A stretch of 64,000 nt of DNA from an uncultured Actinomycetes bacterium (GCA_963733845.1 CAVTEM010000007.1:420763-484762), one strand, 5' to 3'. Positions 29,243-57,319 are shown, counted from the stretch's first letter. Notes: generated by a model not told the origin, from the sequence alone. Numbers and translations are program-made.

Positions 29243-30168
29243 GGAAGGCCTTCGCGGCGGCGCTCGTCGACCTGGCCGCGCGCGGACGAGCGGGTCGTGC
29301 TGCTGACCGGCGACCTCGGCTACACCGTGCTCGAGCCCTTCGCCGAGCGCTTCGGCGACCGGTTCGTCAACGTCGGCGTCGCCGAGCAGAACATGGTCGG
29401 GCTCGCGACCGGGCTCGCGGAGGCCGGCTACGTGCCGTTCTGCTACTCGATCGCGACCTTCGGGTCCCTGCGCCCGTACGAGTTCGTGCGCAACGGCCCG
29501 GCCGCGCACGGCCTGCCCGTGCGGATCGTCGGCGTCGGCGGCGGCTTCGACTACGGCGAGAACGGGCTCTCGCACTACGCGCTCGAGGACGTGGCCGTCA
29601 TGCGCGTCCAGCCGCGGATCACGGTGCTGGCGCCGGCCGACGACGAGCAGACCGCGGCGGCCGTCGCGGCCACTGCCGACCTCACCGGCCCCGCCTACCT
29701 CCGAGTCGCCAAGGCGGGTCCGCCCGTCCCGGGCCTGGAGGGGCGCTTCCAGCGTCGGCCGTGCCGAGCTGCTCGGCGAGGGGACCGACGTTGCGCTGGT
29801 CGCCCTGGGCGGCGCGGCCATGGAGGCGGTCCAGGCCGCCGAGCTGCTCCGGGCGGACGGCGTCGGCGCGACGGTCGCGGTCGTCTCGAGCTTCAACCCC
29901 TCGCCGGTCGAGGACCTCGTCGCGCTGCTCGGCCCGCGTCCCGCTCGCGGTCTCCGTGGAGGCGCACTACGTCGACGGCGGCCTGGGCTCGCTCGTCGCC
30001 GAGACGATCGCGGAGGCGGGGCTCGACTGCCGGCTCGTGCGCTGCGGCGTGCGGTCGATGCCGACGGGCGAGTCGGGCAGCCGCGAGTTCCTGCAGGAGA
30101 AGCACGGCCTCTCGCCGGCAGCGATCGCCCGCGCAGTGCTGCAGGCGGCCCCCCGGAGCGCGGTCTGA
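29238..30168 (+). CDS. Transketolase, C-terminal (Pyr/C-terminal domain) subunit (frame-disrupted as given)
   Basis: GTGA overlap with the previous stop. The gene reads (V)RKAFAAALVDLAAR, then ORF 29297..30838 gives LLTGDLGYTVLEPFAERFGDRFVNVGVAEQNMVGLATGLAEAGYVPFCYSIATF..RIVGVGGGFDYGENGLSHYALEDVAVMRVQP. MEAVQAAELLRADGVGATVAVVSSFNPSPVEDL follows in ORF 29820..30467, and then VSVEAHYVDGGLGSLVAETIAEAG..LQAAPRSAV, ending at 30168. Confidence 0.8.
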
Positions 30169-30838
30169 ACAGCGTCGTCCTGCCCATCCACAACCAGGCC
30201 GACCACCTGGAGGAGGTCATGGAGGGGTACCTGGCCGAGCTCGGGCGGCTGGACGTCCCGACCGAGATCGTGCTCGTGCCGAACGCGTGCCGCGACCGCT
30301 CCCCGAGATCTGCCGCTCGCTGGCCGAGCGCAACGAGGCCGTGCAGGTGGTCGAGCTCGCCGAGGGCGGCTGGGGCCGGGCCGTCCGCGCGGGTCTCGCC
30401 GCGGCGCGCGGCGACGTGCTCTGCTACACGAACTCGGCCCGCACCCAGCCGCCGATGCTCACGCTGATGCTCGTCTACGCGGCCGCGTATCCGGGCGTCG
30501 TGCTGAAGGCGAACCGCACGATCCGCGACAGCTTCCAGCGCCGGGTGGGCTCGCTGCTCTTCAACCTCGAGTGCCGCGCGCTCTTCGACCTGCCGACGAT
30601 GGACGTGAACGGGACGCCGAAGGTCTTCCCGCGGCAGTTCGCGAAGCTGCTCGAGCTCGACCGCGACGACGACCTGATCGACGTCGAGTTCATGCTCGCC
30701 TGCCGGCGCGAGGGCTACCCGCTGATCGAGGTGCCGATCCTCGCCACCGAGCGGCACGGGGCCGAGTCGACGACCAGCTACGGCTCGGCGGTGCGGCTGT
30801 ACACGGGCGCGTGGCGGATGAAGCGTGAGCAGCGATAG
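30165..30838 (+). CDS. GT2 glycosyltransferase (CTG start inferred; one frame switch)
   Basis: (L)NSVVLPIHNQADHLEEVMEGYLAELGRLDVPTEIVLVPNACRDRSP begins exactly at the CTG of a CTGA overlap with the transketolase stop. There is a switch near 30300 into the ORF 29297..30838 frame: EICRSLAERNEAVQVVELAEGGWGRAVRAGLAAARGDVLCYTNSAR..DVNGTPKVFPR..DVEFMLACRREGYPLIEVPI. No ATG or GTG in frame nearby upstream. Confidence 0.7.
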
Positions 30839-31894
30839 GTGGTCGACTCACGACGCCGAGTGGCGCGACCCGCGGCAGGTCGTGGCGCTCTGGGCCGGCG
30901 GCGAGCGCCCGAGCCTGCGCACCCGCGTGCGCGGGCGGCTTCTGGGAGGCGCTCGAGGGCGTCTGCCTGCTCGTCACGCGCGAGTACGAGCACCTCGTCG
31001 TGGCGCTGGCGGGCGGCGGCCAGACGCACATGGCGCTCCCGCACCCGTCCGGGCTGGCCGTCTCGGACGAGCGCGTGACGGTGGCGAGCACGCGCAACCC
31101 CAACCAGCTGGTCGAGCTGCGGCCGGCCGACGCCGAGGGGAGGCCGCTCGTCCCGGTGCGCACGGCGTTCCATCCCGGCGCGCTCTACCTGCACGAGCTC
31201 GCGTACGTCGGCGGCGTCCTGCACGGGAACGCCGTCGGCCAGAACGCGGTCGTCCGGCTCGACCGCGAGCGCGCCGAGCGCGTGTGGTGGCCGAAGGCGA
31301 TCGAGACGGACGCGGGGCCCGACTTCTCGCGCAACTACCTGCAGCTCAACTCGATCGCGGCCGGGTCGAGCGTGGCGTCGTCGTTCTTCTCCGCGTCGGC
31401 CGACCGGATGTCGGCGCGCCGGCCGGGCCACCGCAACTTCCCGGTCGACCGCCGCGGGGTGATCTTCTCCGGCCGCACGCGCGAGCCGGTCGTCTCGGGC
31501 CTCACGCGGCCGCACTCGGCCCGCCTCCACGAGGGCGAGCTCTGGGTCGACAACTCGGGCTACGGCGAGGTCGGCGTCGCCGACGCCGGCCGCTTCGAGG
31601 CCGTCGCCCGCCTGCCCGGCTGGACGCGCGGGCTCGCGTTCCACGGCGACGTCGCGCTGGTCGGCACGTCGCGCGTGATCCCGCGCTTCCGCATGTACGC
31701 GCCCGGGCTCGACCTCGAGCGCTCGGTCTGCGGGGTGCACGCGGTCGACACGCGCAGCGGCGAGGTGCTCGGCTCGCTCGTCTGGCCCGAGGGCAACCAG
31801 ATCTTCGCCGTCGAGGCCGTTCCGCTGAAGCCTGACGAGCGGGTTCCCGCGCGGCGACCTGCGCGAGCTGTACTACAACCTCCCCTTGCCATGA
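30825..31894 (+). CDS. TIGR03032/DUF4915-like conserved hypothetical protein (frame-disrupted near both ends)
   Basis: The GTG at 30825 opens (M)SSDRWSTHDAEWRDPRQVVALWAG. ORF 31000..33924 then reads LPHPSGLAVSDERVTVASTRNPNQLVEL..GLTRPHSARLHEGELWVDNSGYGEVGVADAGRFEAVARLPGWTRGLAFHGDVALVGTSRV..CGVHAVDTRSGEVLGSLVWPEG. The PHSxR..G.LW..SG.GE....G.FE.VA.LPG.TRGL.F.G..A.VG.S block matches my memory of the uncharacterised TIGR03032 family. The tail FPRGDLRELYYNLPLP ends with an ATGA overlap at 31891-31894. Confidence 0.65.
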
Positions 31895-32806
31895 GCGACT
31901 TCCGCCTCCTGATGATCGGCGCCATGTACGAGAACGGCGGCAACGTCACGCACCGCCTGCTCGACGGGCATCCGCAGCTGTTCGTCTACCCGTTCGAGTC
32001 GCAGCTCGGGACGCGGCTCGTCTCCGACGCGCTGGCCTCGACGTTCCCGGTCAAGTACCGCTGGCCGGTGTTCGACCTGGACGCGACGCCCCGAGCGGAC
32101 TACCACGCGATCATCGACGAGGAGTGCAAGGTGCGCGCGCGGACGCCGCACGTGAGCAAGTTCCGCGACCACCCGTTCGACTTCTCGGACGACGAGCGGC
32201 GCGACCTCTACGTCGCGCACGTCGAGGAGAGCGGCCGCTCGCGCGCGGCCAACATCGAGGCGTTCTTCCGCGCGACCTTCGAGGCGTGGCACGACCACCG
32301 CGGGAGCGGCCGCGAGGAGTGGTACGTCGGCTACAGCCCGATCCTCGTGGTCGACGCGGAGACGATCCTGCGCGAGCTGCCGGGCGCGCACTTCCTCCAC
32401 GTCGTCCGCAACCCCTGGTCGGCCTACGCGGACACGAAGAAGCGGCCCGTGCCGCTCTCGCTCGCCGCGCTACATGCTCGCCTGGTGCCTGAACCAGCAC
32501 TGCGCGCTGCTCGCGCGCGAGCGCTTCCCCGACCGCTTCCACCTCCTGCGCACCGAGGACACGCTCGAGGGCGCGCTGCCCGAGCTGTGCGGCCGGATCG
32601 GGCTCGAGGAGTCGGACTCGCTGGCGACGCCGAGCTGGAACGGCGAGCCGCTCGCCGAGGTGTACCCGTGGGGGACGATCCGGACGGCGACGCCCGAGGC
32701 GAACCGCGCCACCGCCGAGGAGCTCTCCGCGGAGGAGCGCGACGAGGTGCGCGTCCGGGCCGGCCTGTTCCTGGAGGCGCTGGGCTACGACGACTTCCTC
32801 GCCTGA
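31891..32806 (+). CDS. Sulfotransferase-family-like protein (one frame switch)
   Basis: MSDFRLLMIGAMYENGGNVTHRLLDGHPQLFVYPFESQLG..GAHFLHVVRNPWSAYADTKKRP carries an RNPxD/S-type 3'-PB-like block. There is a switch near 32470 into ORF 32474..32806: LAWCLNQHCALLARERFPDRFHLLRTEDTLEGALPELCGRIGLEE. The N-terminal P-loop-like element is atypical, so confidence is moderate. Confidence 0.55.
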
Positions 32807-33688
32807 CCCGTCCTCGTCACGGGCGCGGCCGGGTTCGTCGGCGCCAACCTCGTCCGGCGGCTGCTCGCCGACGGCGCTCGCGTCGTCGCGCTCGTCCGGC
32901 CGGGCGGCGACCCGTGGCGGCTCGAGGGGCTCGACGTGGACGTGGTCGAGGCGGACGTGCGCGAGAGTCGTCCCGGGCGGCTTCGGCCTCGTCTACCACC
33001 TCGCCTCCCACGGCGCCTACTCGTGGCAGGACGACGAGGCCGCCGATCCGCGAGACGAACGTGCTCGGCACCGAGAACGCGCTCCGCGCCGGCGAGCGGG
33101 TCGTCGTGGCGGGCTCGTCGTCCGAGTACGGGCTGAAGGACCACGCGCCCGCCGAGGACGAGGCCGCCGAGCCGAACAGCGCCTACGCGGCCGCGAAGGC
33201 GGCGGCGACGGCGCTCGCGATGGAGCAGGGCGCGGTCGTGCTGCGGCTCTACTCCGCGTACGGGCCGTGGGAGGAGCCGGACCGGCTCGTGCCGACGCTG
33301 CTCGGCAAGGCGCTCGCAGGCGAGCTGCCGCCGCTCGTGTCGCCGCGTGTCGCGCGGGACTTCGTCCACGTCGACGACGTCTGCGAGGCGTTCGTCACCG
33401 CTGCACGGTCCGCGCCGCGCCGGCCGCGTCTACAACGTGGGTTCCGGCCGCCAGACGACCATCGCCGAAATCGTCGAGGCCGTGCGAGCACTCGCCGGCG
33501 TCGAGGCCGAGCCGCAGTGGGGCTCGATGCCCGACCGCAGCTGGGACACCGAGACGTGGGTCTCGAACCCGGCGCGGATCCGCGCGGAGCTGGGCTGGGA
33601 GGCGCGGATCGGGCTGGACGACGGCCTCGCCCGGACGCTCGACTGGCTCAGGACGCAGGCCCCGCCGGAGCGCTACATGGTGTCCTAG
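32803..33688 (+). CDS. NAD-dependent epimerase/dehydratase/reductase (extended SDR; frame-disrupted; CTG start inferred)
   Basis: VLVTGAAGFVGANLVRRLLADGARVVALVRPGGDPWRLEGLDVDVVEADVR begins right after the sulfotransferase TGA, with a CTGA junction at 32803. The gene continues NVLGTENALRAGERVVVAGSSSEYG..NSAYAAAKAAATAL (YxxxK)..RLYSAYGPWEEPDRLVPTLL. ORF 33347..33688 then gives VYNVGSGRQTTIAEIVEAV..ELGWEARIGLDDGLARTLDWL. Confidence 0.7.
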
Positions 33689-33948
33689 GCCGGCGGCGGA
33701 GCGGCCGCGTGCTTCACTCGCTCGAAGCACGCTTCGTGGCACGGGTACTCCGCCTCGCGCGGCGGGTTCGACACATGGACGCGGTACGCGTCGCGCGCGT
33801 CGGGCTCGATCCACTCGCCGCACACCAGGCATGCGCCGCCTCGCGAGAGGACGCGATCCTCGACCCGGTCCGGGATCTCGGCCCGGTTCGGATCGTGCAT
33901 GACCTCCGTGACAGCCATCGCTAGATGCGGCGCGGGAAACCCACGCAA
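33685..33948 (-). CDS. Small Cys/His-rich protein (putative zinc-binding), unknown function
   Basis: ORF MRGFPAPHLAMAVTEVMHDPNRAEIPDRVEDRVLSRGGACLVCGEWIEPDARDAYRVHVSNPPREAEYPCHEACFERVKHAAAPPPA. Third codon positions are about 90% G/C by eye, which supports coding. It has CxxC plus CHxxC. The start could be 33948, 33918 or 33900. The 3' end overlaps the convergent SDR stop. Confidence 0.5.
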   Translation of the reverse strand: MRGFPAPHLAMAVTEVMHDPNRAEIPDRVEDRVLSRGGACLVCGEWIEPDARDAYRVHVSNPPREAEYPCHEACFERVKHAAAPPPA

Positions 33949-34027
33949 CTCTCACGGTAGCCGCTCGACTGTGGGGGCGGGGACTGGGCGGCGTGGGGTC
34001 CCGTCCAGTCCCCGATCCCCTCGTGGG

Positions 34028-36408: not shown

Positions 36409-36514
36409 TCGTCCTCCGATCGGAACGCGGGTATGTGGCGCGATCACTTTAAGCCAGCGGCGCGCGCTCTGCAATACTTCGCACGTTCGTCCAACAAACT
36501 GAAGGGAGTGACGC

Positions 36515-36884: not shown

Positions 36885-37012
36885 GCGAGGAAGAGCTCGA
36901 GGACGAGCCGCAGCCCGAGGATCAACCGGCCGAGCCCGAGCTCGAGGAGATCCCGGAGAACGTCCCGGACGACTGGCTGGAACAGAAGCCCTTCGATCCG
37001 GCCGGTCGCTAG
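36881..37012 (+). CDS. Possible 43-aa highly acidic peptide (speculative)
   Basis: MSEEELEDEPQPEDQPAEPELEEIPENVPDDWLEQKPFDPAGR, with an ATGA overlap to the repaired cupredoxin stop. It could instead be an artefact of the frame error, because the ORF track shows it fused to the cupredoxin. Confidence 0.25.
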   Translation: MSEEELEDEPQPEDQPAEPELEEIPENVPDDWLEQKPFDPAGR

Positions 37013-38213: not shown

Positions 38214-39887
38214 AGACCGAAGAAGACCCGTCGGCCGTCCGTGCTGACGATCGGCTCTCCGGCGCCCGCCGCGCGCGCCTGCGTCTCCAGGGCGGCGCCG
38301 TTGTCCGCGAAGCCGAAGCGGTCGACCATCACGCCTGCGTACCCGGCAGCGCGCGCCTCGGCGACCGTGTCGACGTCGTCGCCGATGTCCTCGTCGCGAC
38401 CCTTCATCGCGCCGTAGCTCCAGCGCAGGTCGTCCGAGTGCAGGTAGGGGCGGACGTGGTCGTAGTCGACCATGCGCTGGATCGGCGGCGAGGAGGGGAA
38501 CGCGAGGTAGGGGAGCTCGAGCACCGCGGCGCCCTCGGGCAGCGCCGCGTCGACGCGCTCGACCCAGTCCTCGTCGCTGCTCCACTCGGCGGCGACCTGG
38601 TCGTAGGACGGCGTCATCGCGCCGGTGGTCTGGTCGAGCGCGCCGACCAGGAGCAGCGGGCCGCGGCGACCGCCCAGGCCGCACCGTCCGCGAACCGGCC
38701 GAGCGGAGCGCGACCGCGAGCAGCGCGAGGAACGCGATGAAGACCGAGAAGCGGTTCCAGGCGTGCAGCTGCGGGCTGATCAGGAAGCTGACGGCTGGCG
38801 CCAGCCCTCCCGTCATCGCGAAGAAGAGCGCGATCAGGGCCAGGACGGCCGCGTACCGCAGCAGCGGGTCGCCGCGTGGAGCGCCGGCCCGCCGAACGGC
38901 CTTCGCGAGCAGGATCGTCGCGAGCAGCACGACCAGCCCGACGTCCCGACGATGCCGAGGGCCGCGAAGGACGCCTCGGTGACGCCGACCTGGCGCTCGT
39001 AGCGCTCCTTGACGTCGGCGAGGCGCCGATGCGGTGGTCGCGACGGGCAGCACGAGCTGGAGCGGCGCGGAGGCTGAAGACCTCGGTCTCGAAGGCGAAG
39101 CGCTCGACCGCCGGGTTCGAGCCCTCCCGCAGGCGATCGACGATCGCCGGCGCGAAGTTCACGACCAGCGCGACCACGATCGCCGCCCCGAGGGCGCCGG
39201 CCGTCACGAGCGGACGGGTCGTCCGGCTCGTCGACCGCGGCCAGAGATCGCGGCGGCCGCCAGCAGGATCAGCGTGAAGGCGGCGTAGTACACGGCCGCC
39301 GAGCCGACGATCACGCACGCAGCGAGGATCGCGAGCGCCCGCCGGCTGCGAAGGGGCGTGACGAGCGGCGTGTCCGCGAGCACCGAGAGCGCGAGGAAGC
39401 AGCCGAGCGGCACCGCCCAGTACGCGGCCAGGAAGAGGTGGTCCTCGCCGCGCAGGAAGTGGTAGGGGAGCAGCGAGTAGAGCACCGAGGCGGCGAAGGC
39501 GCCCGGGCTGCGCCGACGCCCAGCCGGCGCAGGACGAGGAACGCCGTCAGCGCCGCCAGCGGGAAGGTCAGCAGGTAGAAGAGGTTGAAGGCGACGATCG
39601 GGTCGCGCACGACCACGCCGAGCGCACGCACGAGCGCCAGCTGGACGTTGTCGCCGGCGAAGACCGGGAAGTCGTAGAGCTCCTGCCCGCGCGGCGCGCC
39701 GAGCTCGTCGTTCTCCCAGAGCTGCGCCGTCCTCGACCGCGTGCTTGACGACGGCGGCGGTGAAGGCGGCGTCGCCGGAGTAGTCGAAGGGCACGCGCAG
39801 GTCGGCGTTCCAGACCTCGAGCACGAGGCACGCCACTACGAGCGCGAGCGCCGCTGCGGCGAGCGTCCCGACGAGCGCGCGGCCCAC
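38210..39887 (-). CDS. Large polytopic membrane protein with C-terminal soluble domain, family not recognised (heavily frame-disrupted)
   Basis: The GTG at 39887 opens (M)GRALVGTLAAAALALVVACLVLEVWNADLRVPFDYSGDAAFTAAVVKHAVEDG. The next piece is MRALGVVVRDPIVAFNLFYLLTFPLAALTAFLVLRRLGV (ORF 39311..39631). SVLYSLLPYHFLRGEDHLFLAAYWAVPLGCFLALSVL..ILAACVIVGSAAVYYAAFTLILLAAAA is in ORF 39204..39887. VTAGALGAAIVVALVVNFAPAIVDRLREGSNPAVERFAFETEVFSLR is in ORF 38614..39318. LLRYAAVLALIALFFAMTGGLAPAVSFLISPQLHAWNRFSVFIAFLALLAVAL follows. The soluble tail is ORF 38210..38617. Confidence 0.6.
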
Positions 39888-39889
39888 CC

Positions 39890-40850
39890 CTACAGCTCGG
39901 CGCGTGCGGCGAGTCGCTTGACGTCGGCCTCGACCATGAGCTGTACCAGTTCGTCGAAGCCGACCTCGGGCCTCCAGCCCAGCCGCTCGCGCGCCTTCCT
40001 CGCGTCGCCGAGGAGCGCCTTCGGGGTCGGTGGCGCCGCGCGTGAGCGACTCGTCGTAGCGGACGTGCTCCTGCCAGTCGAGGCCGACGACGCCGGAAGG
40101 CGGCCTCGACGAGGTCGCGGACGGAGCGGGCCTCGCCCGTGGCGACGACGTAGTCGTCCGCGCCCTCGGCGCGCACCATCAGCTGCATCGCGCGGGTGTA
40201 GTCGCCGGCGAAGCCCCAGTCGCGGCGGGCGTCGAGGTTCCCGAGCGTGACGTGGTCCTCGAGCCCGAGGCTGATCGCCGCGGCGGCGCGGGTGATCTTG
40301 CGGGTGACGAAGTGCGGCGGGCGGCGCGGCGACTCATGGTTGAACAGGATCCCGGCGGACGCGTGCAGCCCGTAGCGGGCTCGAAACGCCTGCACCGCGT
40401 GGAGCCCGAAGGCCTTGGCCGCACCGTAGGGGCTCAGCGGCGCCGGCCGCGTCGTCTCGCTCTGCGGCGGCTCGTCGGCGGCGGCGAAGATCTCGCTCGA
40501 CGAGGCGAAGAAGGCGCGCGTCTGCGGGACTCGCACGCAGCGCGTCGAGCAGCGCGACGACCGCGCCTGTCTCGGCGCGCGTCAGTCCGACCGGGTCTTC
40601 CCACCAGGCGGGCACGAACGAGACCGCGGCGAGGTGGTAGAGCTCGTCGGGAGCGAGCTCGGTAGAGCCTGCGCCGGGATCGAGGAGGTCGAGGTCGACG
40701 AAGCGAATCCGGTCGCGGATCTCCCTCGAGCAGCGGGTAGTCGTCAGGAGAGCCGAGGACGGTGCCGAGCACCTCGTGCCCGTCCGCCAGCAGTTGCTCG
40801 GCGAGATAGGAGCCGTCCTGCCCGCCGACACCCGTGATCAGCGCCCTCAC
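39890..40850 (-). CDS. gmd: GDP-mannose 4,6-dehydratase, copy 2 (frame-disrupted as given)
   Basis: The GTG at 40850 opens VRALITGVGGQDGSYLAEQLLADGHEVLGTV. The next piece is IRFVDLDLLDPG..LYHLAAVSFVPAWWEDPVGLTRAETGAVVALLDALR (ORF 40334..40831). [120 protein letters not shown] is in ORF 39568..40536. The tail LLGDARKAREQLGWRPEVGFDELVQLMVEADVKRLAARAEL ends at the TAG at 39890-39892. Confidence 0.8.
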
Positions 40851-40944
40851 GGGCGCGCACCCTACGCGACCCGCTTGGCGGGGGCGTGCTCGGCTCGGTG
40901 CGCCCCGAGCTCGGCTCGAGCATGCGAGACCGCCGAGGCTTCGC

Positions 40945-42460
40945 TCAATACGCGCCGCGCGCCGCCACGACGGCGGGCACCGTCTTGGCGAGGATCGAGA
41001 TGTCGAGCCAGATCGACCAATGCTCGAGGTAGTAGAAGTCCAGGCGGACGAGGTCGTCGAAGCGAGAGATCGGCACGACCCGCGATCTGCCACAGGCCCG
41101 TCATCCCCGGCAGCACGAGGTAGCGCTTGCGGTGCCACGCCTCGAGGCGCTCGAAGTCGCGCACGGGCAGCGGCCGCGGCCCGACGAGGCTCATCTCGCC
41201 GCGAAGCACGTTCAGCACCTGCGGGATCTCGTCGAGCGAGAAGCGGCGCAGGAAGCGGCCGACCGGGGTGATGCGCGGGTCGTCGCGGATCTTGAACAGC
41301 GCGCCCTCGGCCTCGTTCGCCCCTTCCAGCTGCTCCTGCCGCTCGGCCGCGTCGGCGTACATCGTCCGGAACTTGATCATGTCGAACGGCTCCTCGTTCA
41401 GCCCGATCCTGCGGTCGCGGTACAGGATCGGCCCGCGCGACCCGAGCTTGATCGCGGCGGCCACGGCGAGCCAGATGGGCAGGCCGAACACGATCACCAG
41501 CACGCTCACCACGAGGTCGAACGCCCGCTTCACGACCCAGTCGGAGCCGGCGAAGGCCGGCGGGCGCAGCTCGAAGAGCGGCGTGCCCTGACCGGGGATG
41601 TACTCGGCTCGCTCGGTCAGGAGCGCCGTCGTCTTCGGTGCCACGCGCACCTGGACGCCGCGCCGGTGGGCCTGCTCGACGATGTCGAGCAGCTGGCGCT
41701 CGCTGAAGTCCGAGTCGGCCAGGATCAGCTCGTCCAGCGCCTGCGTCTCGGCGAGCACGCCCGGGAGGCTCTCGAGCGGCCCCAGCACGGGCAGGTCACC
41801 TCGAGCCGAGCCCTCGCTGACCACGCCGATGAAGTCGTAGGTGATGCCGCTGCGGTTGGAGCCGATCGCCTGGTGCAGGTGCGTGAGGCTCGGCTCCTCG
41901 CCGACGAGGATCGCACGCCGGCGGACGCCCGCGATCCGCATCGCCTCGCCGCTCAGCACCTCGTAGCTCGCGCGCAGCAGCCCGATCAGCACGACGGCGA
42001 GCACGAGTGCGGTCGGCACGAGCCCGTAGGTGTGGAACTCGTGGTCGGTGCCGATCCCGAAGGCGAGGGCCAGGACGCCCACGAGCGCCAGCGAGCCGAC
42101 GATGCGGCCGACCCCCGCACGATGGCCGCGCTCGGCGTACAGGCCGGCTCTCCAGAAGACGAGCACGGTCACGAGCCCGAGAAACGGCAGCCAGTCCGAC
42201 TCGGCGCGCCAGAGCACGCCCCAGAGGATCGAGTCGGCGCCGTGGTAGAGCTCGCGGATGACCAGCGCGGCGTAGATCCCGAGGGTCAGGCCGCAGAGAT
42301 CGAGCAGGACGAGAGAGGCGACGCTCGCGACCCGGCGGACGAACGCGCGCAGGTGCTGCGCGGAGAGGAGCCAGGGCCGCGCGGAGCGGATGTCGCCCAC
42401 CCTCGGCGCGGGCGGAGGTCGCTCGGAGGACGCGGGCCGGACGGCAGGCTTCGTGGCCAC
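40945..42460 (-). CDS. Polyprenyl-phosphate hexose-1-phosphate transferase (WbaP/EPS-type large phosphoglycosyl transferase; terminal frame switch)
   Basis: ORF 40862..42460 has N-terminal TM helices and a central Rossmann-like segment (RRAILVGEEPSL..LDELILAD). The bacterial sugar transferase domain follows: KRAFDLVVSVLVIVFGLPIWLAVAAAIKLGSRGPILYRDRRIGLNEEPFDMIKFRTMYADAAE..ALFKIRDDPRITPVGRFLRRFSLDEIPQVLNVLRGEMSLVGPRPLP. After about 41080 the true tail (..DFYYLEHWSIWLDISILAKTVPAVVAARGAY) is in another frame and ends at the TGA at 40945-40947. Confidence 0.85.
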
Positions 42461-45336: not shown

Positions 45337-45429
45337 AGCGCCATGACCCTAGCGGCCTTCGTCGCGGTTAGGCCGGGAGCCTGGACAGGACCCCGCCGAG
45401 CGGCCGCTAAGGGTTCGCGGGCGCGGCGA

Positions 45430-46229
45430 GCCGCCGACTGCGGGCGCTGCGGCCGCGGGACGCGGCGTCCGCTCGCTCGGCGCCCGGCGCCGGTCGTGAG
45501 GCGGCGCGTGGCGCGGAGCGCGAAGACCGTCTCCGGTCGCGAGACCCTGTCGTGCGCGGCCGAGCCCGTGCACGATCTGCTCGCCGACCGGCTCGCGGCC
45601 GCGGTAGTCGAGAGCGCCTGCCCGTTCTCCTCGCGCTCGTGGTTGACGCGGAGCGTCGGGTCGCCGATCACCGTCCGAAGGTGGTTCTCTCGGCCTCGTC
45701 CCCGGCGGCGTGCGCGCGGTCGTACTCGCCGTCGATGTTGTACCGATCCGCGCGCTCGTACTGACCCGGAAGCCCTCGGTGGGCAGTGGCTCGGTTCATC
45801 TCGAGGCTGAGCTCGTCCGACCCCAGCATGTCGTCGACGTCGACGTACGCCTCCTGCGGCTGTCGATCAGGAGCGCCCCGCCGCCCACGAGCCCGTGCCG
45901 CGTGATCAGGCGCATCGGCACGACCTCCGCCCGGTCGATGAGCTCATCATCTCCCGATCGAAGTTGTTGATCGCGGCGGCGTCCCTGATCTCGTAGCGCA
46001 GGATCGCGCGTCGCGCATCCGGCTCGCGGAGCCAGTAGACCAGGCCCGGTGACTGGCGGTTCAGGCGGGCGACGATCTCCTCTCGCCGGTCGTACGCGTC
46101 GCTTCGCCACGGCCGGGAGGCCGCAGCTGTACCTCGCGCTGGATCATCGCCGCCGTCGCGCGGTTACCCGCCGAGCGCTGGAGCGCGAGGACCACCGCCG
46201 CAGGAGCCGCACGGGTTCCCGGCGGGCAT
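45430..46229 (-). CDS. Hypothetical protein with N-terminal LQRxxGNxA motif (heavily frame-disrupted; boundaries approximate)
   Basis: The ATG is at about 46229. The readable pieces are AAPAAVVLALQRSAGNRATAAMIQREVQL, DAYDRREEIVARLNRQSPGLVYWLREPDARRAILRYEIRDAAAINNFDREM, DELIDRAEVVPMRLITRHGLVGGGALLIDS, QEAYVDVDDMLGSDELSLEMN and NHLRTVIGDPTLRVNHEREENGQAL. They lie in successive different minus frames. Confidence 0.35.
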
Positions 46230-46418
46230 GCGGCTCGTCTCCGCTCGGACGGGCTCAGGCGACCGCGTCGCCTCGGAGGCGTGCTCGGCCATCCCCGCGA
46301 TCCTGTCACCTGTGCGCCGCGATCAAGCCTCCCGCTGCCCCCGTTTGATTCGCCGCCTCGGCGGGGATTTTGCGCGTGCCGCCTCGCGCCGTGCGGGGCG
46401 CCGAACCAAGGGGGGAAC

Positions 46419-47231
46419 ATGAACAGGATGCTTCGCCGCGGCAGCCTCGCCGTGCTTTGCGTGGCCGCCGGCGTACTGCTCGCGTCGGTCGCAGGCCTGG
46501 GGACGAGCCAGGCGGCTCCCCAGGCGCCGCCGGTCAACACCGCGCTACCTTCGATCACCGGGACGCCACAGCAGAGCCAGACGCTGACCGCGCAGAACGG
46601 CACGTGGACCGGCACGGGGACGATCTCGTTCCGATACCAGTGGCTGCGCTGCAACGCCGCCGGCAACGGCTGCAACGAGATCTCCGGAGCGATCGAGCGG
46701 ATCTACACGCTGCGCAGTCCCGACGTCGGCAATACGATTCGCGTCCGCGTGACGGCGACGAACCCGGACGGCTCGACGTCGGCGACGTCCGCGCCGACCG
46801 CCGTCGTCACCCGGAGCGGGCCGTCTCCGACGGGCTGCCCGTCCGGAACGGGTCCGATCAACATCGGCCAGCTCGCTCCCCCAGCGCGGCTGACGGTCGA
46901 CGGCCAGAGCCTGGCGCCCACGCCGGTCAGGCGCTCGACACAGGCGCTCACGGTCCGCTTCCACGTCTCGGCGTGCGGCGGTCGTGCGGTCCAGGGAGCG
47001 CTCGTCTATGTCACGGCGACGCCGTACAACCAGTTCGGCATCCCGCCTGAGCAGGCGACCGGGGCCGACGGCTGGGCACAGCTCTCGATGAGCCGGCTGC
47101 GCGGCTTCCCCGCCACACCTCGCCAGCAGCTCCTCGTGATCTTCGTCCGCGCGCGCAAGCAGGGCGAGAACCTGCTCGGCGGTGTCTCGACGAGGCGACT
47201 CGTGTCGTTCCCCGTCAACCTCCGCGCGTAG
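46419..47231 (+). CDS. Secreted protein with Ig-like repeat domain
   Basis: AAGGGGGG precedes the ATG at 46419. The signal peptide is MNRMLRRGSLAVLCVAAGVLLASVAGLGTSQAAPQA. The repeat module reads PSITGTPQQSQTLTAQNGTWTGTGTISFRYQWLRCNAAGNGCNEISGAIERIYTLRSPDVGNTIRVRVTATNPDGSTSATS. Intact. Confidence 0.75.
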   Translation: MNRMLRRGSLAVLCVAAGVLLASVAGLGTSQAAPQAPPVNTALPSITGTPQQSQTLTAQNGTWTGTGTISFRYQWLRCNAAGNGCNEISGAIERIYTLRSPDVGNTIRVRVTATNPDGSTSATSAPTAVVTRSGPSPTGCPSGTGPINIGQLAPPARLTVDGQSLAPTPVRRSTQALTVRFHVSACGGRAVQGALVYVTATPYNQFGIPPEQATGADGWAQLSMSRLRGFPATPRQQLLVIFVRARKQGENLLGGVSTRRLVSFPVNLRA

Positions 47232-49422: not shown

Positions 49423-50668
49423 TCAGCGTTCACGCAGCGCATACAGCCGGGCGTGCCCGACGAGGTAGACGCGCTCGGCGTCGGCGACCACCGGCGAGTA
49501 CTTGCCGTCGGGCCAGATCCACACCTGCCGGCCGGTGCGCGCGTCGAGGCCGTACGTCCGGCCCTTCAGCGTGGCGAAGTAGACGATCCCGTCGATCACG
49601 GTCGCAGAGCCCGAGATCGGCCCGTTGGCCTTGAACTGCCAGACCACGTCCCCTGTGGCCGCGTCGAAGGCGTAGAAGCGCCCGTTGTAGGAGCCGACGT
49701 ACACGCGCTCGCGGTACACCGCCGGCGAGCCGTACACGAAGTCGCCGGTGTTCTGCGACCAGCGCAGCTTTCCCGTGGAGGCGCCGAAGGAGTAGACCTT
49801 CCCGTCGGTCCCGCCGATGTAGACGCGGCCGTACGCGACGGCCGGCGTCGAGTAGAAGCGCCCGCGCTGGCCGAGACGCTGCTGGGCCGAAGCGCGCCAG
49901 ATCAGCTTGCCCGTGAGCGGGTTCAGGGCGTAGACCCGGTGGTCGTAGGAGCCGAAGTAGAGCCGGTTGGAGGCGAGCGCGAGCGCTCCCTTGATCTCGC
50001 CCCGACTCCGGAAGGTCCACTTGAGCTCGCCGGTGCGAGCGACGTAGCAATAGACGATCCCGCGCCAGTCGCCGACGAACAGCAGGCCGCGCCAGAGCAA
50101 CGGCGAGGACTCGCTCGGCCCGATCTCCTTGCGCCAGCGCACCTTGCCGTTGCCGGCCGCGAGCGCGACCAGCTCGCCGGTCAGCTGCTTGCCCGAGCGG
50201 TTGCACGGCGGCCGGTTCAGGAACGTCATGAAGACCGTGCCGCCGCGGATCCCCGGCGAGGCGGCCACGCAGCGGCGGGCGCGGTAGCGCCAGGCCCGCT
50301 TGCCGGTGCGAGCGTTGACGGCGAACAGCGTCCCGGCCGAGTTCGCGAAGTACAGGCGGCCGTGCCCGACCGCCGGCGGGAACTCGAGCAGCGTGCGAGC
50401 GCGGAAGCGCCAGATGCCCCGATAGGGCGGGCGGTGGTCGAAGGGCGAGATCCGCAGGCGCCGCTCGTCGTAGCCGAACATCGGCCAGGGGATGTCGGGT
50501 GACCCGCACAATGGGCTCCGGCTCGGCGACGTCGGTCGTGACGAACTCCACGGTCGAGGAGCCACGGACGTCGCGGCTCTGGCGCTCGCGGATCAGCGCG
50601 TAGGCGAGGATGGCCCCGCCCGCCAGCAGGAGCGCGGCGGCGAGCGCCGCGAGGGCTTTTTTCTTCAC
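49423..50668 (-). CDS. Membrane-anchored PQQ-like (BamB-like) beta-propeller repeat protein (one frame switch)
   Basis: The GTG at 50668 opens (M)KKKALAALAAALLLAGGAILAYAL, a TM anchor in ORF 49430..50668. There is a switch near 50510 into ORF 49423..50565. That ORF has repeated blades: LFAVNARTGKRAWRY, LVALAAGNGKVRWRK, VYCYVARTGELKWTF, VYALNPLTGKLIWRA, VYSFGASTGKLRWSQ, FYAFDAATGDVVWQF and TYGLDARTGRQVWIW. Confidence 0.8.
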
Positions 50669-52075
50669 CGCCGCGGCTTGACCGCGTACAAGCGCGAGTA
50701 GCCGTGCAGGAGCAGCCGCGAGCCGTTCCCCGAGACCGGGACGTACTCGCCGTGCGGGAAGCGGAACAGCACGCGCCCGCTGCGGGCGTCGGCGCCGACC
50801 ATGCTCCCGCGGGTGGAGGCGGCGTAGGCGACCTTGTCGACGACGACCGCGGCGCCCGAGACCGGCCCGCCGGCGCCGACCGACCAGAGCACGCGACCGC
50901 TACGGGCGTTCACCCCGTACAGGCGACCGTTGTAGGAGCCGAAGAAGACCCGCCCGCCCCAGGCGGCGGGCGACGAGTAGACGTAGGAGCCCGTGCGCAG
51001 GCGCCAGAGGTAGCGCCCGCCCGTGGAGAAGGCGGTCAGCGAGCCGCCCGTCGACGAGGGGACGAAGACGCGGCCGGACGCGAGCGCGGGCGTGCCGTAG
51101 ATGCGGCCGCCGACCGGCCGGGCCCACGAGAGCCGCCCGGTGCGCAATGCGAGCGAGCGCACGTAGCCGCCGTAGTCGCCGATGTAGAGCCGCTTGCCGG
51201 CGATCGCGGCGCTGGACGTGATCTTGAAGCCCGCGCGGTGCGTCCAGCGCATGCGCCGCCGCTCGACGTCGAGTGCGTAGACGGTGCCGTTCCAGGCGCC
51301 GAAGTAGTCGACCCCGTTCTTCACGATCGGCGAGGACTCGATCGGCGAGCCCACCCTGTAGCGCCAGAGCACCTTGCCGTTCGCGCGATCGAGCGCCCAG
51401 ACGTTCCCGCGCATCCCGTGCACGATTACCCGATCGCCGACCACGGCGGGCGAGGCTGCCATCACGGAGTCGGTCCGGCGCCGCCAGACGACGTGGCCGC
51501 CGCGCATCTCGATCGCCCAGACGTAGCCGCGCTGGTTCGTGACGTAGGCGATCCCCTCGGAGACGACCGCGGGGAACTCGACCAGCGACCCGACCCCGCG
51601 GCTCCAGACGACCTTGAACGGCGGCCGCATGCGGATCCGCGGGTGCGCCTGTGTGCGCTGCGGCGTGACGCCGTACATCGGCCACTGCAGCGCCCTCCGG
51701 TAGATACGGACGGTGTTCTGGCGCCGGCGCTGGAAGGGGACGCGCACGGTGCGGCTGAGGTAGCCGGGCGCGGCGACTCTCACCTGCAGCGGCGCCAGGC
51801 GCCTGATCCGCAGCGTGGACAGGCCCTTCCGGTTGGCGCGGTCGCGCACCCGGCCGACGCGCGCGACGGCGGTCTTGATGCGCCTGCCGGTGTCGCCGTC
51901 GACCGCGACGACGTAGACCTTGACGCGCTTCGCGGCCTTGCGGACAGGCGGCTTGGCGACCGTCGTCGTCTCGGTCTTGCGCCGCCTGCTCGTCGGACTC
52001 GAGTCGGCTGAGTCCGGCGGCGCAGCCTGCGACGAGGCCCACGAGGGCCAGGAAGATGGCGGCCCTGAGGATCAG
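50665..52075 (-). CDS. PQQ-like beta-propeller lipoprotein (CTG start inferred; one frame switch)
   Basis: The CTG at 52075 forms a CTGA overlap with the ATP-grasp stop. It opens (L)ILRAAIFLALVGLVAGCAAG, a signal peptide plus LVAGC lipobox. There is a switch near 51975. ORF 50665..51849 then has blades VWAIEMRGGHVVWRR, VWALDRANGKVLWRY, VYALDVERRRMRWTH, VRSLALRTGRLSWAR, LTAFSTGGRYLWRL, LYGVNARSGRVLWSV and MVGADARSGRVLFRF. GTGA overlap with the next gene. Confidence 0.75.
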
Positions 52076-53076
52076 ACTTCCCCGGGCTCGCTGGCGATCG
52101 GCTCTGGGACCTCCTCGGCGAACGGTTCGAGCGTACCCGCGTCCCCGGCGGTCAACGAGAGATGCGAGAAGAAGCGGGTCATCACGACCCCGTCGCGGAA
52201 GTCGCCCAGCCGCGGCTCGGGCTGGCCGCCGTTCGCGAGCTCGAGCGCGAGCTCGGGGTAGCGCCCGCCCGCTGCGTGGGGGAGCGGGAAGCCGCCGCCG
52301 AAGCGCGGGTTGACGTCGGTGACCTGGTGCGTCCCGTCCGCCTCGCGGAAGCACTGCACGTTGGCCGGCCCCCAGATCGGCAGAGCCTCGGCCACCTCGC
52401 GGCCGTACTCGATCAGGTCCCAGTCCTTGATCGTCATGCCCTTGATCGACTCGCCGCCCTTGGACTCGACCATCGTGCGCGGGATCGCGTTCAGGCAGCG
52501 GCCCTCGAAGTCGCAGAAGACGTCGATCGAGAACTCGGCGCCGGCGCAGCACCTCTGCACGAAGGAGGGGGTGGTCACGCGCCGGACGTAGAAGTCGAGC
52601 TCCTCGCGGTCGTTCGCGCGAAAGATGTTGCGCGAGCCGAAGCCGCGCCGCGCCTTGACGAGCAGCGGGAAGGCGGCGTCCTCGGGAACCTCCTCGGGCA
52701 GCCAGCTCGGCGGCGACGGGATCCCTCGCGACTCGAAGAACGTGTGCGCGAGGTACTTGTCCGCGGTCATGCGCACGACGTCGAGCCCCGGCAGCAGCAC
52801 GGTCGTGCCGAGGTCGTCGCGCGCGCCGACGAGCTGCTCGTGGTCGAGGTCGGTCAGCGGCACGATCAGGCGCACGTCGTGCGCGAGGACGAGGTCGCGG
52901 ATCGCATCGAGGTAGCCCTCGTCGTCGACGCGCGGGACCAGGGCATAGCTGTCCGCGTGGTAGAGCGCCGGCGCGAGCGGGTTGACGTCGGCCGCGATCG
53001 TCGTCGCGCCGGCGCGCCCGAAGGCGGTCACGATGTCGACGCGCTGGCCGGCGCACGTGAAGAGGACGGGGGTCAC
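52072..53076 (-). CDS. ATP-grasp domain ligase
   Basis: Intact 334 aa. It reads FPLLVKARRGFGSRNIFRANDREELDFY..AEFSIDVFCDFEGRCLNAIPRTMVESKGGESIKGMT..ANVQCFREADGTHQVTDVNPRFGGGFPL. Confidence 0.8.
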   Translation of the reverse strand: MTPVLFTCAGQRVDIVTAFGRAGATTIAADVNPLAPALYHADSYALVPRVDDEGYLDAIRDLVLAHDVRLIVPLTDLDHEQLVGARDDLGTTVLLPGLDVVRMTADKYLAHTFFESRGIPSPPSWLPEEVPEDAAFPLLVKARRGFGSRNIFRANDREELDFYVRRVTTPSFVQRCCAGAEFSIDVFCDFEGRCLNAIPRTMVESKGGESIKGMTIKDWDLIEYGREVAEALPIWGPANVQCFREADGTHQVTDVNPRFGGGFPLPHAAGGRYPELALELANGGQPEPRLGDFRDGVVMTRFFSHLSLTAGDAGTLEPFAEEVPEPIASEPGEV

Positions 53077-53185
53077 CGCCCGGAGGGTACCGTCAGGTTC
53101 AGGCGTCCTCGCGGCCCGGCCGAGGCGTGGGCCGTGTCGGTGCCAGGCACCGTCGAGAAAGGCTCACGGCTTCGTCACGAAAGCG

Positions 53186-53764
53186 TCACGCGCGCCAGCC
53201 GCCCGTCTCGCCCTTGTACGTGCCGCCGAACAGGGCCAGCGGCGTGCGCAGGAGGATCTTCAGATCGACGCGCGGGGAGCGGTGCTCGACGTACCAGACG
53301 TCCAGCTCGATCCGCTCCTCCCACGGCAGCGCCGCCCGGCCGTGGATCTGGGCCCAGCCGGTGATGCCGGGCTTGACCTCGAGGCGGCGCCTCTGGCGTT
53401 CGGTGTAGCGCTCGACCTGGTAGGCGAGGGTGGGCCGCGGGCCGATCAGGCTCATCTCGCCGCGCACGACGTTCCAGAGCTGGGGCAGCTCGTCGAGCGA
53501 GAGGCGGCGGAGAACGCGGCCGGCCCTCGTGATCCGCGGGTCGCCCTTGTTGACGGACCAGCCCGCGCCCTGCGTCTCGGCGCCCTCCACCATCGTGCGC
53601 AGCTTCAGCAGCTCGAACGGGCGACCGTCCTGCCCGACGCGCTCCTGGCGATAGAGGACCGGGCCGCGGTCCTCGAGCTTGATCGCGAGCGCCGACGCGG
53701 CGAGGAACGGGCTCGCGAGCGCCAGGCCCAGCGAGGCTCCCGCCACGTCCAGGGCGCGGTTCAC
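53186..53764 (-). CDS. Small monotopic phosphoglycosyl transferase (bacterial sugar transferase family, PglC/WecA-unrelated type)
   Basis: Intact 192 aa. It reads MNRALDVAGASLGLALASPFLAASALAIKLEDRGPVLYRQERVGQDGRPFELLKLRTMVEGAE..GDPRITRAGRVLRRLSLDELPQLWNVVRGEMSLIGPRP. Confidence 0.85.
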   Translation of the reverse strand: MNRALDVAGASLGLALASPFLAASALAIKLEDRGPVLYRQERVGQDGRPFELLKLRTMVEGAETQGAGWSVNKGDPRITRAGRVLRRLSLDELPQLWNVVRGEMSLIGPRPTLAYQVERYTERQRRRLEVKPGITGWAQIHGRAALPWEERIELDVWYVEHRSPRVDLKILLRTPLALFGGTYKGETGGWRA

Positions 53765-53853
53765 TCGGCCTCGTGGGGCGTCGCTGGCAAGCGTAGGGAG
53801 GGGGAACAGTGCGTCAGCACGGGCCCCCGACTGGAGCGCAGTCAGCGGCGAGG

Positions 53854-54981: not shown

Positions 54982-54991
54982 CGCGGCGACT

Positions 54992-56005
54992 CTAGTCGTG
55001 GAGCGCGTCCTCGTAGGCGCGGAGCGTGTCGGCGGTGGCGCGCTCCCACGACAGCTGCTCCCGCGCCCGCTCCCGCGCGGCCTCACCCAGCCGGCGCCGC
55101 AGGTCGGCGTCTCCGAGCAGCCAGCGCAGAGCCTCGCGCAGCGCCGCCTCGTCGCCCGGCGGCACGAGCAGCCCCGTCTCGTTGTGGCGGACGAGGTCGA
55201 GCAGGCCGCCGACGGCGGAGGCTACGACCGGCTTCCCGTGGGCCATCGCCTCGGCACAGACGACGCCGTAGCCCTCGCGGCGCGACGGCACGGCGACCAC
55301 CGCCGCCCGCCGGTAGTACGGCCCGAGCTCGGCGTTCGGGACGAAGCCGAGCGCCTGCGGGACCTCGTCCCGGAGCGGCCCGTCGCCCACGACCACGAGC
55401 GGGATGCCGTCGGCGGCCGCGAGCAGGTCGAGGATGCCCTTCTCCGGCGAGAGCCGGCCCACGTAGAGCACGTGCGGCGGCTGCGCCTCCTCCTCGCCCT
55501 CGTCCGCGGGCACGTCGACGCCGCTCGGGATCACGCGCACGTCGCGCGCGCCCAGCTCGCGCGCGGAGCCGGCGAGCGCGGAGGACGCGCAGATCACCAG
55601 CTGCGCCCGCTCGACCACCGGCCGCGCGAGCGTGGGCATCCGGCGGGCCAGCTCGACGTCGGTGCCCCAGAGCTGGAGCACGTACGGCTTCCCCGCGGCC
55701 AGCGCTGCCAGCCCGGAGGGCAGCCAGTGCGCGTGCACGAGATCGGCGTCACGCGAGGCCGAGCGCGCGGCCCGCCCGTAGGCGGCCAGGAACACGGGCA
55801 GGAGCGCGGCCCGCCATGGCTCGGAGCGCAGGTTGTTCACGATCCCGCCGCCGTAGGCGATCCCGAAGTGGCGGAAGCGCGCGGGAGAGACGACCTCGAC
55901 CTCGACGCCCGCCGCCTGCACGCGGTCGACGGCGTCCGCCACGAACCGGCCCGCGACGTCCTCCGGCGAGCGTGGATACGAGGTGGTGAGGACGACGACC
56001 TTCAT
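54992..56005 (-). CDS. GT4 glycosyltransferase
   Basis: The ATG at 56005 forms an ATGA overlap with the upstream stop. The gene reads MKVVVLTTSYPRSPEDVAGRFVADAV..LVHAHWLPSGLAAL..VLYVGRLSPEKGILDLL..VVAVPSRREGYGVVCAEAMAHGKPVVASAVGGLLDLV. It is intact within the long fused ORF 54992..58042. Confidence 0.85.
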   Translation of the reverse strand: MKVVVLTTSYPRSPEDVAGRFVADAVDRVQAAGVEVEVVSPARFRHFGIAYGGGIVNNLRSEPWRAALLPVFLAAYGRAARSASRDADLVHAHWLPSGLAALAAGKPYVLQLWGTDVELARRMPTLARPVVERAQLVICASSALAGSARELGARDVRVIPSGVDVPADEGEEEAQPPHVLYVGRLSPEKGILDLLAAADGIPLVVVGDGPLRDEVPQALGFVPNAELGPYYRRAAVVAVPSRREGYGVVCAEAMAHGKPVVASAVGGLLDLVRHNETGLLVPPGDEAALREALRWLLGDADLRRRLGEAARERAREQLSWERATADTLRAYEDALHD

Positions 56006-57319
56006 GCGCGCCGCGCGAACACGATCGGGGCCGCCAGCGCCAGGGCCGCGAAGGCGTAGAAGTAATAGAACTGCATCGTCAGGTAGAAGGCGTTCGCTGC
56101 CATCGTCCCCGCGAGCGCCGCGGTCAGACCCCAGGCGAGCGGCCGCACGCGCGCCGCGAGCGGGTCTCCCGCCGCGGCCAGCCGGCGCCCGAGGTGCCGT
56201 GCCGCTCGCAGGCGCCGGAAGATCCAGAGCAGGAACAGCCCGAACAGCGCCGCGCCGACCAGCCCGGTCTCGACGAGGAGCGCCACGTAGAAGGAGTGTG
56301 GCCCCCAGTTCGTCCGGCCGGTGACGAACTCGTAGTAGACGGAGAAGTTGTTCAGTCCGAGCCCGAACAACGGGTGGAGGGAGAGCACGTCGGGGATGAA
56401 CCCGTACACGTCGAAGTGCGCCGAGCTGGAGGCGCCGCTCGTCTCGATCCGCGAGCGCAGGACGACGTCGAAGAAATCGGCGCGCCGGGCGACGATCACG
56501 GCCAGCAGCCCGATCACCGCGGCGAGCGGGATCAGCAGCGCCCGCGAGACCAGCAGCCGCCGGTAGGGCACGGCGAGCACGAGCAGCCCGACGGCGAGGC
56601 CGAGCCAGCCGCTCCGCGACAGCGTCGCCAGCTCCATCACGAGCAGGAACGGCAGCAGCACCGCAAGCCGCAGCCGCCACCGATGGCCGGGCTCCAGCCG
56701 GAGGTAGATCGGCGTCAACACGAGCAGCGGCACCAAGCAGCATCACCGCCAGGTGGTTCGGGTCACCGGTGAGCGCGTTCGGCCGGTAGACGTCGGCACC
56801 CTCGACGACGCCGTAGATGTTGATCGAGCTCGCGCCGCCGGTGAGCGGCGCCAGGAGCGACTGGTCGAGGTCCTGCCCGCGGTTCGCCGCCACGAGCTGG
56901 GCCACGCCGTAGAGGGCGTTCGCGGCCATCCCGGCCGTGAACCAGCCGAGCGTGCGCCAGTAGAAGGCACGGCTCCGCCTGGTCAGGTAGGCGATCCCGG
57001 CCGCGAGGAAGGCGAAGTGGAGCCCGAACTTCACCAGCCCCTTCACGAACTGCTCGAGCGCCTGGCGCGTGTCGAGGTTGAAGAAGCCGACGAGGTAGAC
57101 GAGCGCGAAGGCGAGCGCGAACCCGAGCGCGATCAGCGCCGTGCGCGGCAACCGGTCGTCGTGCTCGACCCAGCGGCCGACGACGAAGACGGCCACGAAC
57201 AGGAGCGCGAGCATGTCCGCCAGGCTCACCGAGCCGGCGAGCTCCCAGTGCACCTTCTCGAAGGTGACCGAGAACAGCGTCGCCAGGAAGAAGAAGCCGG
57301 TCAAACGGTCGAGGGTCAG
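56002..57319 (-). CDS. O-antigen ligase/polymerase-like (Wzy_C-type) membrane protein (CTG start inferred; one frame switch)
   Basis: The CTG at 57319 forms a CTGA overlap with the GT4 stop at 57316. It opens (L)TLDRLTGFFFLATLFSVTFEKVHWELAGSVSLADMLALLFVAVFVVG. There is a switch near 56740 into ORF 56002..56736: LLPFLLVMELATLSRSGWLGLAVGLLVLAV..GPHSFYVALLVETGLVGAALFGLFLLW. Confidence 0.75.

Follow-up and report, generated by a model that had tools for sequence, protein, structure and literature searches.

The NTGA overlap is the commonest geometry of translational coupling (PMC12548453). In the −4-nucleotide overlaps described for termination–reinitiation, two co-oriented genes share the bases TG between the TGA stop codon of the first and the NTG start codon of the second, and a Shine–Dalgarno (SD) sequence lies within the 3′ end of the upstream gene (Huber et al. 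2019, PMC6728339; PMC12548453). The overlap papers that we found name only ATG, GTG, and TTG as start codons, and our literature search returned no paper on CTGA junctions or on coupling at CUG. A study of reinitiation at noncanonical codons (PMC4648390) was set aside because it concerns eukaryotic Xenopus oocytes and is not applicable. CUG itself belongs to the rare near-cognate starts (CTG, ATT, ATC, and ATA in translation table 11) and differs from AUG at the first base only. In Escherichia coli, it initiates at about 1 to 2% of the level of AUG and is occasionally annotated as a start (Hecht et al., 10.1101/063800). In this report, we examine a 64,000-nucleotide stretch of DNA from an uncultured Actinomycetes bacterium (GCA_963733845.1, CAVTEM010000007.1:420763-484762; hereafter “the window”), in which CTG appears to serve as the start codon at several CTGA stop/start overlaps. 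Four junctions are considered by name: J1 (30165; GT2 glycosyltransferase gene), J2 (32803; SDR epimerase gene), J3 (52075; lipoprotein gene), and J4 (57319; Wzy-like gene).

These junctions resemble the described NTGA overlaps in their arrangement, and the same alignment columns hold ATGA, GTGA, or TTGA in orthologues. They differ in that N is C at J1, J3, and J4, with G or A found in the orthologues of J3 and J4. They are also unlike sporadic CTG starts, because CTG, within a single lineage, is found in several clades and gene families, interchanges with GTG or ATG, and is fixed in one clade of 11 contigs. This recurrence across families and clades points to more than sporadic use. The CTGA starts described here represent a new form of two known phenomena, NTGA coupling and the rare CTG start. 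The AUU codon of infC (IF3) is also a conserved noncanonical start, and its weak recognition is tolerated or put to use. There, however, the codon is autoregulatory and tied to IF3 function, whereas no regulatory logic is evident for the polysaccharide-cluster genes studied here.

CTG codons at stop/start overlaps

Judging from comparisons among orthologous sequences, we consider it probable that at J1, J3, and J4, and at homologous junctions in relatives, the downstream gene is initiated at the CUG of a CUGA overlap. The −4 geometry is present at these three junctions with the reading frame confirmed by homology, and each carries an SD-like motif 3 to 10 nucleotides before the start within the upstream gene; neither holds for J2. 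The conserved N-terminus leaves no room for a canonical start at J1, at J3 (orthologous loci L001 and L021), or in the SDR gene of L125, and for J4 this is only partly so. A canonical start occupies the aligned position in some orthologues of J3, J4, a sugar transferase gene, and the SDR gene, but not of J1. Protein-level constraint just after the CTG is evident in codons 2 to 9 of the GT2 gene, in three sequence variants at J4, and in the features of the signal peptide at J3.

The CTGA tetranucleotide is not above chance. The window contains 337 copies, counting both strands, and among strongly coding open reading frames (ORFs) of the window and its relatives the base preceding TGA stops is C in 221 cases, G in 229, A in 82, and T in 39. 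Because C precedes 39% of these stops, CTGA by itself carries no information. A sequence-only reading of the window had proposed CTG starts at 30165 and 32803 on the plus strand and at 52075 and 57319 on the minus strand, and had listed eight canonical ATGA or GTGA overlaps nearby. All four tetranucleotides are present, as are the eight overlaps, one of which (29238) is displaced by a single base. The test that we used was a walk along in-frame codons for a CTG that stands in register with a conserved N-terminus and lacks a canonical alternative. An NTGA census based on GC3, in which CTGA occurred 25 times in the overlap frame and 7 and 12 times in the other two, was dropped because it was contaminated by TGATG one-base overlaps (proteins opening “LM...”), by frameshift sites in long-read metagenome-assembled genomes (MAGs), and by antisense shadow ORFs. 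It was replaced by register-anchored family clustering of start columns. Orthologues support the proposed starts at 30165, where CTGA is kept throughout the clade, and at 52075 and 57319, where ATG or GTG stands in the same column. In contrast, the proposal for 32803 fails on reading frame, on the lack of an SD motif, and on a missing base.

At J1 (30165–30168, plus strand), the CTG that would open a GT2 glycosyltransferase frame shares two bases with the TGA of a gene for the transketolase C-terminal subunit. The upstream gene (29239–30168) is frameshifted in the window, and its orthologues in L049–L053 and L056 carry PF02779/PF02780. The GT2 gene (30165–30838) matches PF00535 from residue 3, and one base missing near 30300–30305, as judged against contig L050 and Logan contigs, shifts its frame. 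An SD-like GGAG (30155–30158) lies 6 nucleotides upstream of the CTG. The earlier statement that no ATG, GTG, or TTG is within reach upstream is borne out: the sole in-frame canonical codon there is the ATG at 29820, 115 codons away. The first canonical codon downstream in the window is an ATG at codon +18, within the GT2 fold. CTGA followed by (L)NSVVLPIH is common to the window and 10 contigs of different metagenomes (L049–L053, L055–L057, L061, and L062) that share 78 to 97% identity. The consensus of this clade is ...CGGAG-N7-CTG AAC (AGC/TCG/TCC) GTC GTN CTG CC..., with CGGAG present in 11 of 11 members. None of the seven relatives that were walked has an in-frame ATG, GTG, or TTG upstream, and in-frame stops precede the CTG by 28 codons in L056, 103 in L049, and 100 in L052.

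Codons 2 to 9 of the GT2 gene are invariant in amino acid sequence over the 11 contigs and include at least six synonymous differences, among them serine AGC to TCG or TCC. Such exclusively synonymous change suggests that the stretch is translated. Canonical codons downstream of the CTG lie at inconsistent positions (+5, +18, and deeper picks by gene callers), with none nearby in some members, and starting at any of them would remove the first GT-A strand. The nearest database homologues (P0001–P0015; 81 to 97% identity) are all called from assorted internal GTG, ATG, or TTG codons and are without this N-terminal strand. In outgroup L054 (75% identical), the GT2 start is a GTG located 13 nucleotides after the stop, and in the J1 clade CTG probably became the start after the GT2 gene was joined to the upstream stop. 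Read from the CTG, the N-terminal tryptic peptide would be (M)NSVVLPIHNQADHLEEV....

At J3 (52072–52075, minus strand), the TGA of a PylC-like ATP-grasp gene (52072–53076) overlaps the CTG that would open the signal peptide LILRAAIFLALVGLVAGC of a BamB/PQQ β-propeller lipoprotein (50665–52075; PF13570/PF13360). An SD-like GGGGA (52079–52083) is located 3 nucleotides upstream of the CTG, inside the conserved EPGE codons of the ATP-grasp gene. As had been claimed, there is no canonical start within reach of 52075, the nearest being a GTG at −93 and a GTG at +11 codons, and initiation at the latter would delete the n- and h-regions of the signal peptide. We retrieved 48 orthologous loci with the ATP-grasp protein and compared the start column in those where the lipoprotein gene comes next. 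The column is GTG in L002, L008, L009, L014, L028, L033, L037, and L043, ATG in L018, and CTG in the window, L001, L021, L046, and L047. The lipoprotein ORF is intact from the CTG in L001, L021, and L047 (466 to 467 codons). In the short-read MAG locus L001 (467 codons), an in-frame stop lies at −48 with no canonical start between it and the CTG, and the first canonical codon, GTG at +11, would leave MGLVAGC. In L021 (466 codons), the stop is at −43, and canonical starts begin only at +28, downstream of the lipobox cysteine. The CTG state is found in at least two separate clades of the ATP-grasp tree, in which GTG-bearing L002 is nested beside CTG-bearing L001, and both CTG clades retain a basic n-region, a hydrophobic core, and an AGC lipobox. 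The gene call in the independent ENA contig L137 starts the lipoprotein at GTG +11, and the signal peptide is lost.

At J4 (57316–57319, minus strand), the TGA of a GT4 glycosyltransferase gene (57316–58566, identified by Pfam search) overlaps the CTG that would open a gene for a Wzy/O-antigen-ligase-like membrane protein (56002–57319; PF04932). An SD-like GGAGGAGG (57327–57334) lies 7 to 10 nucleotides upstream of the CTG. The start column is ATG in L001, GTG in L002, L004, and L043, and CTG in the window and L047. The proposed start at 57319 draws support from this interchange; the proposal had left unmentioned a TTG at codon +5 (57304) and an in-frame GTG at −23. L047, which is 93% identical, has CTG at the junction and lacks the TTG. 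All three short-read variants that fall between the CTG and the TTG (57314, 57308, and 57305) are synonymous in the CTG frame, an outcome with a chance probability of about 0.04.

The same substitution recurs in other families. The Bac_transf sugar transferase gene of the window (53186–53764, minus strand), which lies upstream of the ATP-grasp gene, starts with GTG, and five orthologues have a CTGA start in the same column. Overall, this column is GTG in 24 sequences, ATG in 4, TTG in 2, and CTG in 5 (L002, L010, L025, L029, and L043). The five CTG-bearing genes are intact at 192 to 193 codons, lie behind GGAGGG or GAGGG motifs, and fall in at least four clades. Two further CTG starts are found in the GT2 gene of L082 and in a GT4-like gene of L029. 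Counting all families, CTG-bearing genes are full length in 11 orthologous loci (L001, L021, L047, L002, L010, L025, L029, L043, L072, L082, and L125).

The SDR family provides both a counterexample and additional cases. The CTGA at J2 (32803–32806, plus strand) is real yet is not the SDR start in the window. The upstream sulfotransferase-like gene (31891–32806; PF13469 in orthologues) begins at a canonical ATGA overlap and is frameshifted near 32400–32450, and the NAD-dependent epimerase/SDR gene (32810–33688; PF01370) has at least three frameshifts. The SDR had been proposed to open at this CTG after correction of one indel; its VLVTGAAGFVG motif instead lies in the frame of the upstream TGA (TGA CCC GTC CTC). 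Two short-read contigs spanning J2 insert a G after 32807, giving TGA C GCC GTC CTC GTC with the SDR in the third frame, which reads CCT GAC GCC GTC CTC, and there is no SD-like motif upstream of 32803. We conclude that 32803 is not a CTG start and that the window sequence there is corrupted. In the close orthologues L052 and L060, the SDR gene starts four bases after the stop, at a GTG that coincides with the V of VLVTG. That column reads GTC in L056 and the window lineage, and in the window the GTC is followed by CTC, with no obvious start codon there. In L056 (4736), the codon after GTC is CTG (GTC CTG GTC), a possible nonoverlapping CTG start.

SDR orthologues in L072, L082, and L125 have CTGA junctions with the openings (L)SRAVVTG, (L)TRTLVTG, and (L)TRALLTG, respectively, where others read M-[KR]-R-x-L-x-TG. 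The L125 gene is intact over 321 codons; a stop precedes the CTG in frame by 20 codons, and no canonical codon occurs before +31. The metagenome contig L082 (72% G+C) carries two CTGA start junctions, those of its GT2 and SDR genes (2183 and 4951).

Alternative explanations

The alternative that we take most seriously, and still regard as unlikely, is that these genes start at another codon and that the CTG is an in-frame leucine codon or is untranslated. Candidate canonical starts would be the TTG at +5 or GTG at −23 of the Wzy-like gene, a GTG at −28 of the L047 lipoprotein gene, and a GTG at +6 that occurs in the sugar transferase genes of L002 and L043; a near-cognate candidate is codon 2 of the lipoprotein gene, which is ATC or ATT in all five CTG-bearing members. 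The gene calls of L137 (a HuB_forest contig; positions 560 and 5729) indeed use TTG +5 for an intact 433-amino-acid Wzy-like protein, in addition to the lipoprotein GTG +11. However, such alternatives are not conserved, as the L047 Wzy gene without the TTG illustrates. The L001 and L021 lipoprotein genes have upstream in-frame stops, and their sole canonical starts would destroy the signal peptide, whereas the SDR gene of L125 and the GT2 gene of L056 are without any canonical option. Lipoprotein genes that start with GTG have an ATC or ATT at codon 2 just as often (five of seven), and no such codon follows at the GT2, SDR, sugar transferase, and window Wzy junctions. CTG is the sole near-cognate codon common to all cases. 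Less probable still is that a G-to-C change destroyed the start codon and left silent genes or decaying pseudogenes in dispensable polysaccharide clusters. Such loss would agree with the strong depletion of CTG relative to GTG at start columns, with the frameshifts in the window copies of all four downstream genes, and with the GTC that replaces the SDR GTG start in the window lineage and L056. Yet the window frameshifts that were checked are absent from a 97%-identical contig and from four to five short-read runs, and the CTG-bearing ORFs of the 11 orthologous loci have accumulated no disabling mutations. Moreover, the GT2 clade keeps CTGA at 78 to 97% identity with purely synonymous change beside the CTG, and signal-peptide charge, hydrophobic core, and lipobox are preserved in two diverged CTG clades.

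Sequencing or assembly error, by which base or indel mistakes would have turned canonical junctions into CTGA, is very improbable as a general account. The window is rich in single-base indels relative to L050 and L137, and a base is missing after 32807 at J2. However, the CTGA of J1, J3, and J4 is identical in Logan contigs of several studies, in L137, and in contigs of short-read MAGs or metagenomes (L001 and L049–L062). The artefact explanation is refuted for J1, J3, and J4 and holds only for J2 and the internal frameshifts. Programmed −1 frameshifting before the stop would fuse the downstream to the upstream protein with no need of a start codon, and at each CTGA junction the downstream gene does lie in the −1 frame relative to the upstream gene. 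We give this idea almost no credence, because there is no conserved slippery heptamer (the bases preceding CTGA vary among GCGGTC, CCAGCC, GGGGCC, GAAGTC, and GAAGCC), a lipoprotein signal peptide would be useless inside an ATP-grasp fusion, and initiation in this column is clear in orthologues that have GTG or ATG there. Programmed +1 frameshifting was ruled out as well, for want of a conserved slippery sequence, as was stop readthrough or fusion at J2 and J3, where the shared upstream frame comes from single-base errors of the window.

Several observations weigh against initiation at CUG. The first concerns frequency: summed over the register-anchored families, NTGA start columns are roughly ATG in 115 sequences, GTG in 128, TTG in 26, and CTG in 28, and CTG is strongly depleted relative to GTG, whereas C makes up about half of C plus G before nonoverlapping TGA stops. 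Outside the three families of the sequence-only reading, only about 10 of 279 NTGA starts are CTG, and the sample of loci is biased by ascertainment, having been fetched around that reading's own junctions. No CTG was seen among about 70 nonoverlapping start-column sequences, a number too small for significance and without power to test dependence on coupling; the comparison is powerless because almost all genes of these clusters begin at an NTGA overlap. Distant GT2 homologues have a conserved internal leucine in the CTG column, four residues after the methionine (M-x-x-x-L-x-S-[IV]-V-L-P), and the J1 start is therefore assigned by exclusion and has no shared start column. At J4, the window has the TTG at +5, and the GTG at −23, inside the upstream gene, is kept in all Wzy orthologues, which makes an extended Wzy product possible. 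In addition, the SD motif is weak or absent at the two CTGA junctions of L082.

That CTG is depleted at start columns yet present in them fits a weak functional start better than a null allele. We read the SD-assisted CUG at a −4 overlap as a weak start that is tolerated, though selected against relative to GUG, and not as a preferred one. The GT4 gene at 54992–56002 (minus strand) and its orthologues (family MKLVVLTTSYPRS) have TTG in 10 of 15 NTGA start columns, which indicates that overlaps in this cluster often carry weak start codons.

A model for initiation at CUG and its consequences

In the mechanism that we propose, the upstream gene would end at UGA, and its last codons would hold an SD-like purine run 3 to 10 nucleotides before the CUG. 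Either the ribosome that terminates at UGA or a 30S subunit retained by the SD-like run could then position initiator tRNA one base upstream, on the near-cognate CUG, and the downstream protein would begin with formylmethionine at the position written L. We infer that CUG is the codon used, that methionine is inserted, and that termination–reinitiation contributes, and likewise that the CTG starts depend on translational coupling. A G-to-C change at the third position of the last upstream codon, usually a synonymous one, would give rise to the CUG, which might be tolerated for low-abundance proteins of the polysaccharide cluster even though it is selected against relative to GUG.

A broader possibility, which we offer tentatively, is that CUG is a genuine start codon in Gaiellaceae and related high-G+C soil Actinomycetota, where it would interchange with GUG and AUG and be licensed at −4 overlaps by a relaxed start check of reinitiating ribosomes. 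A synonymous G/C toggle in the last upstream codon might then tune expression of the downstream gene, and gene finders would systematically truncate such proteins in MAGs.

If CUG initiates at CTGA overlaps, the stringency of bacterial start-codon selection would depend on context, which bears on the question of 30S versus 70S reinitiation. Selection from the downstream start would also act on the final codon of the upstream gene, at its third base. There is a practical consequence for gene calling in high-G+C MAGs: callers that allow only ATG, GTG, and TTG would cut N-termini, as in the GT2 homologues P0001–P0015 and the L137 lipoprotein, and thereby corrupt predictions of localization and domains in metagenome catalogs.

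Gene cluster and sequence quality of the window

The window has a G+C content of 65 to 75%, and its nearest relatives among public genomes are soil MAGs of uncultured Gaiellaceae (Thermoleophilia, Actinomycetota). Pfam matches and orthologous gene calls identify the region from 26 to 64 kb as a polysaccharide-biosynthesis cluster. Its genes encode split transketolase subunits, a GT2, a DUF4915 protein, a sulfotransferase-like protein, an SDR epimerase, several GT4s, a Wzy-like protein, a Bac_transf sugar transferase, a PylC-like ATP-grasp enzyme, and BamB/PQQ-type lipoproteins.

A GC3 frame plot of the window reveals many frame switches, and the sequence-only reading had missed the frameshifts in the window copies of all four genes downstream of the CTGA junctions. 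Compared with the metagenome contig L050 (88% nucleotide identity), the window has about 18 single-base indels in 4.7 kb, and compared with L137 (97.2% identity) it has extra bases at 50502, 51977 (in the lipoprotein gene), and 56738 (in the Wzy-like gene). The insertion at 51977 is absent from four DNA runs, one RNA run, and L137, and that at 56738 is absent from the other assemblies (Logan contigs and L137). More generally, the bases that are extra in the window at 51977–51979 and 56735–56738 are missing from short-read Logan contigs of four soil runs and likewise from metatranscriptome contigs. The frameshifts that were compared with independent assemblies (GT2, lipoprotein, and Wzy) are window-specific one-base errors. 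Because the same shifts are absent from those assemblies, the internal frameshifts are noise and biologically uninformative. In contrast, CTGA at J1, J3, and J4 is unchanged in short-read Logan contigs, and at J3 and J4 it is also unchanged in L137.

The single-base indels of the window are mostly inserted G or C residues that break ORFs, and the corresponding ORFs are intact in independent assemblies of 88 to 97% identity. The indels are rich in three parts of the window (26000–34000, 38600–41000, and 45300–47200), with specific sites at 30300–30305, 32807, 50502, 51977, 54983–54992, and 56738. The source assembly appears to be error-prone, with errors clustering in parts of the polysaccharide locus.

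Metatranscriptome contigs cover the region from 50 to 58 kb, and one contig of 209 nucleotides spans J3, although carry-over of DNA is possible. Over the sugar transferase gene (53204–53737), the depth of metagenome and metatranscriptome contigs is 10 to 20 times that of its neighbors. This peak is likely due to conserved sequence that recruits contigs of many related organisms.

A further CTGA junction in the window, at 38837 (minus strand), may open a membrane-protein-like frame (L)IALFFAMTGGLAPAVSFL that has a canonical ATG at +7 and a GTG at −31. The cassette of GT2, DUF4915, sulfotransferase-like, and SDR genes (30165–33688 in the window; loci L057–L136) is widespread in soil and sediment metagenomes, and 538 stretches covering a wide range of G+C content encode a relative of the sulfotransferase-like protein.

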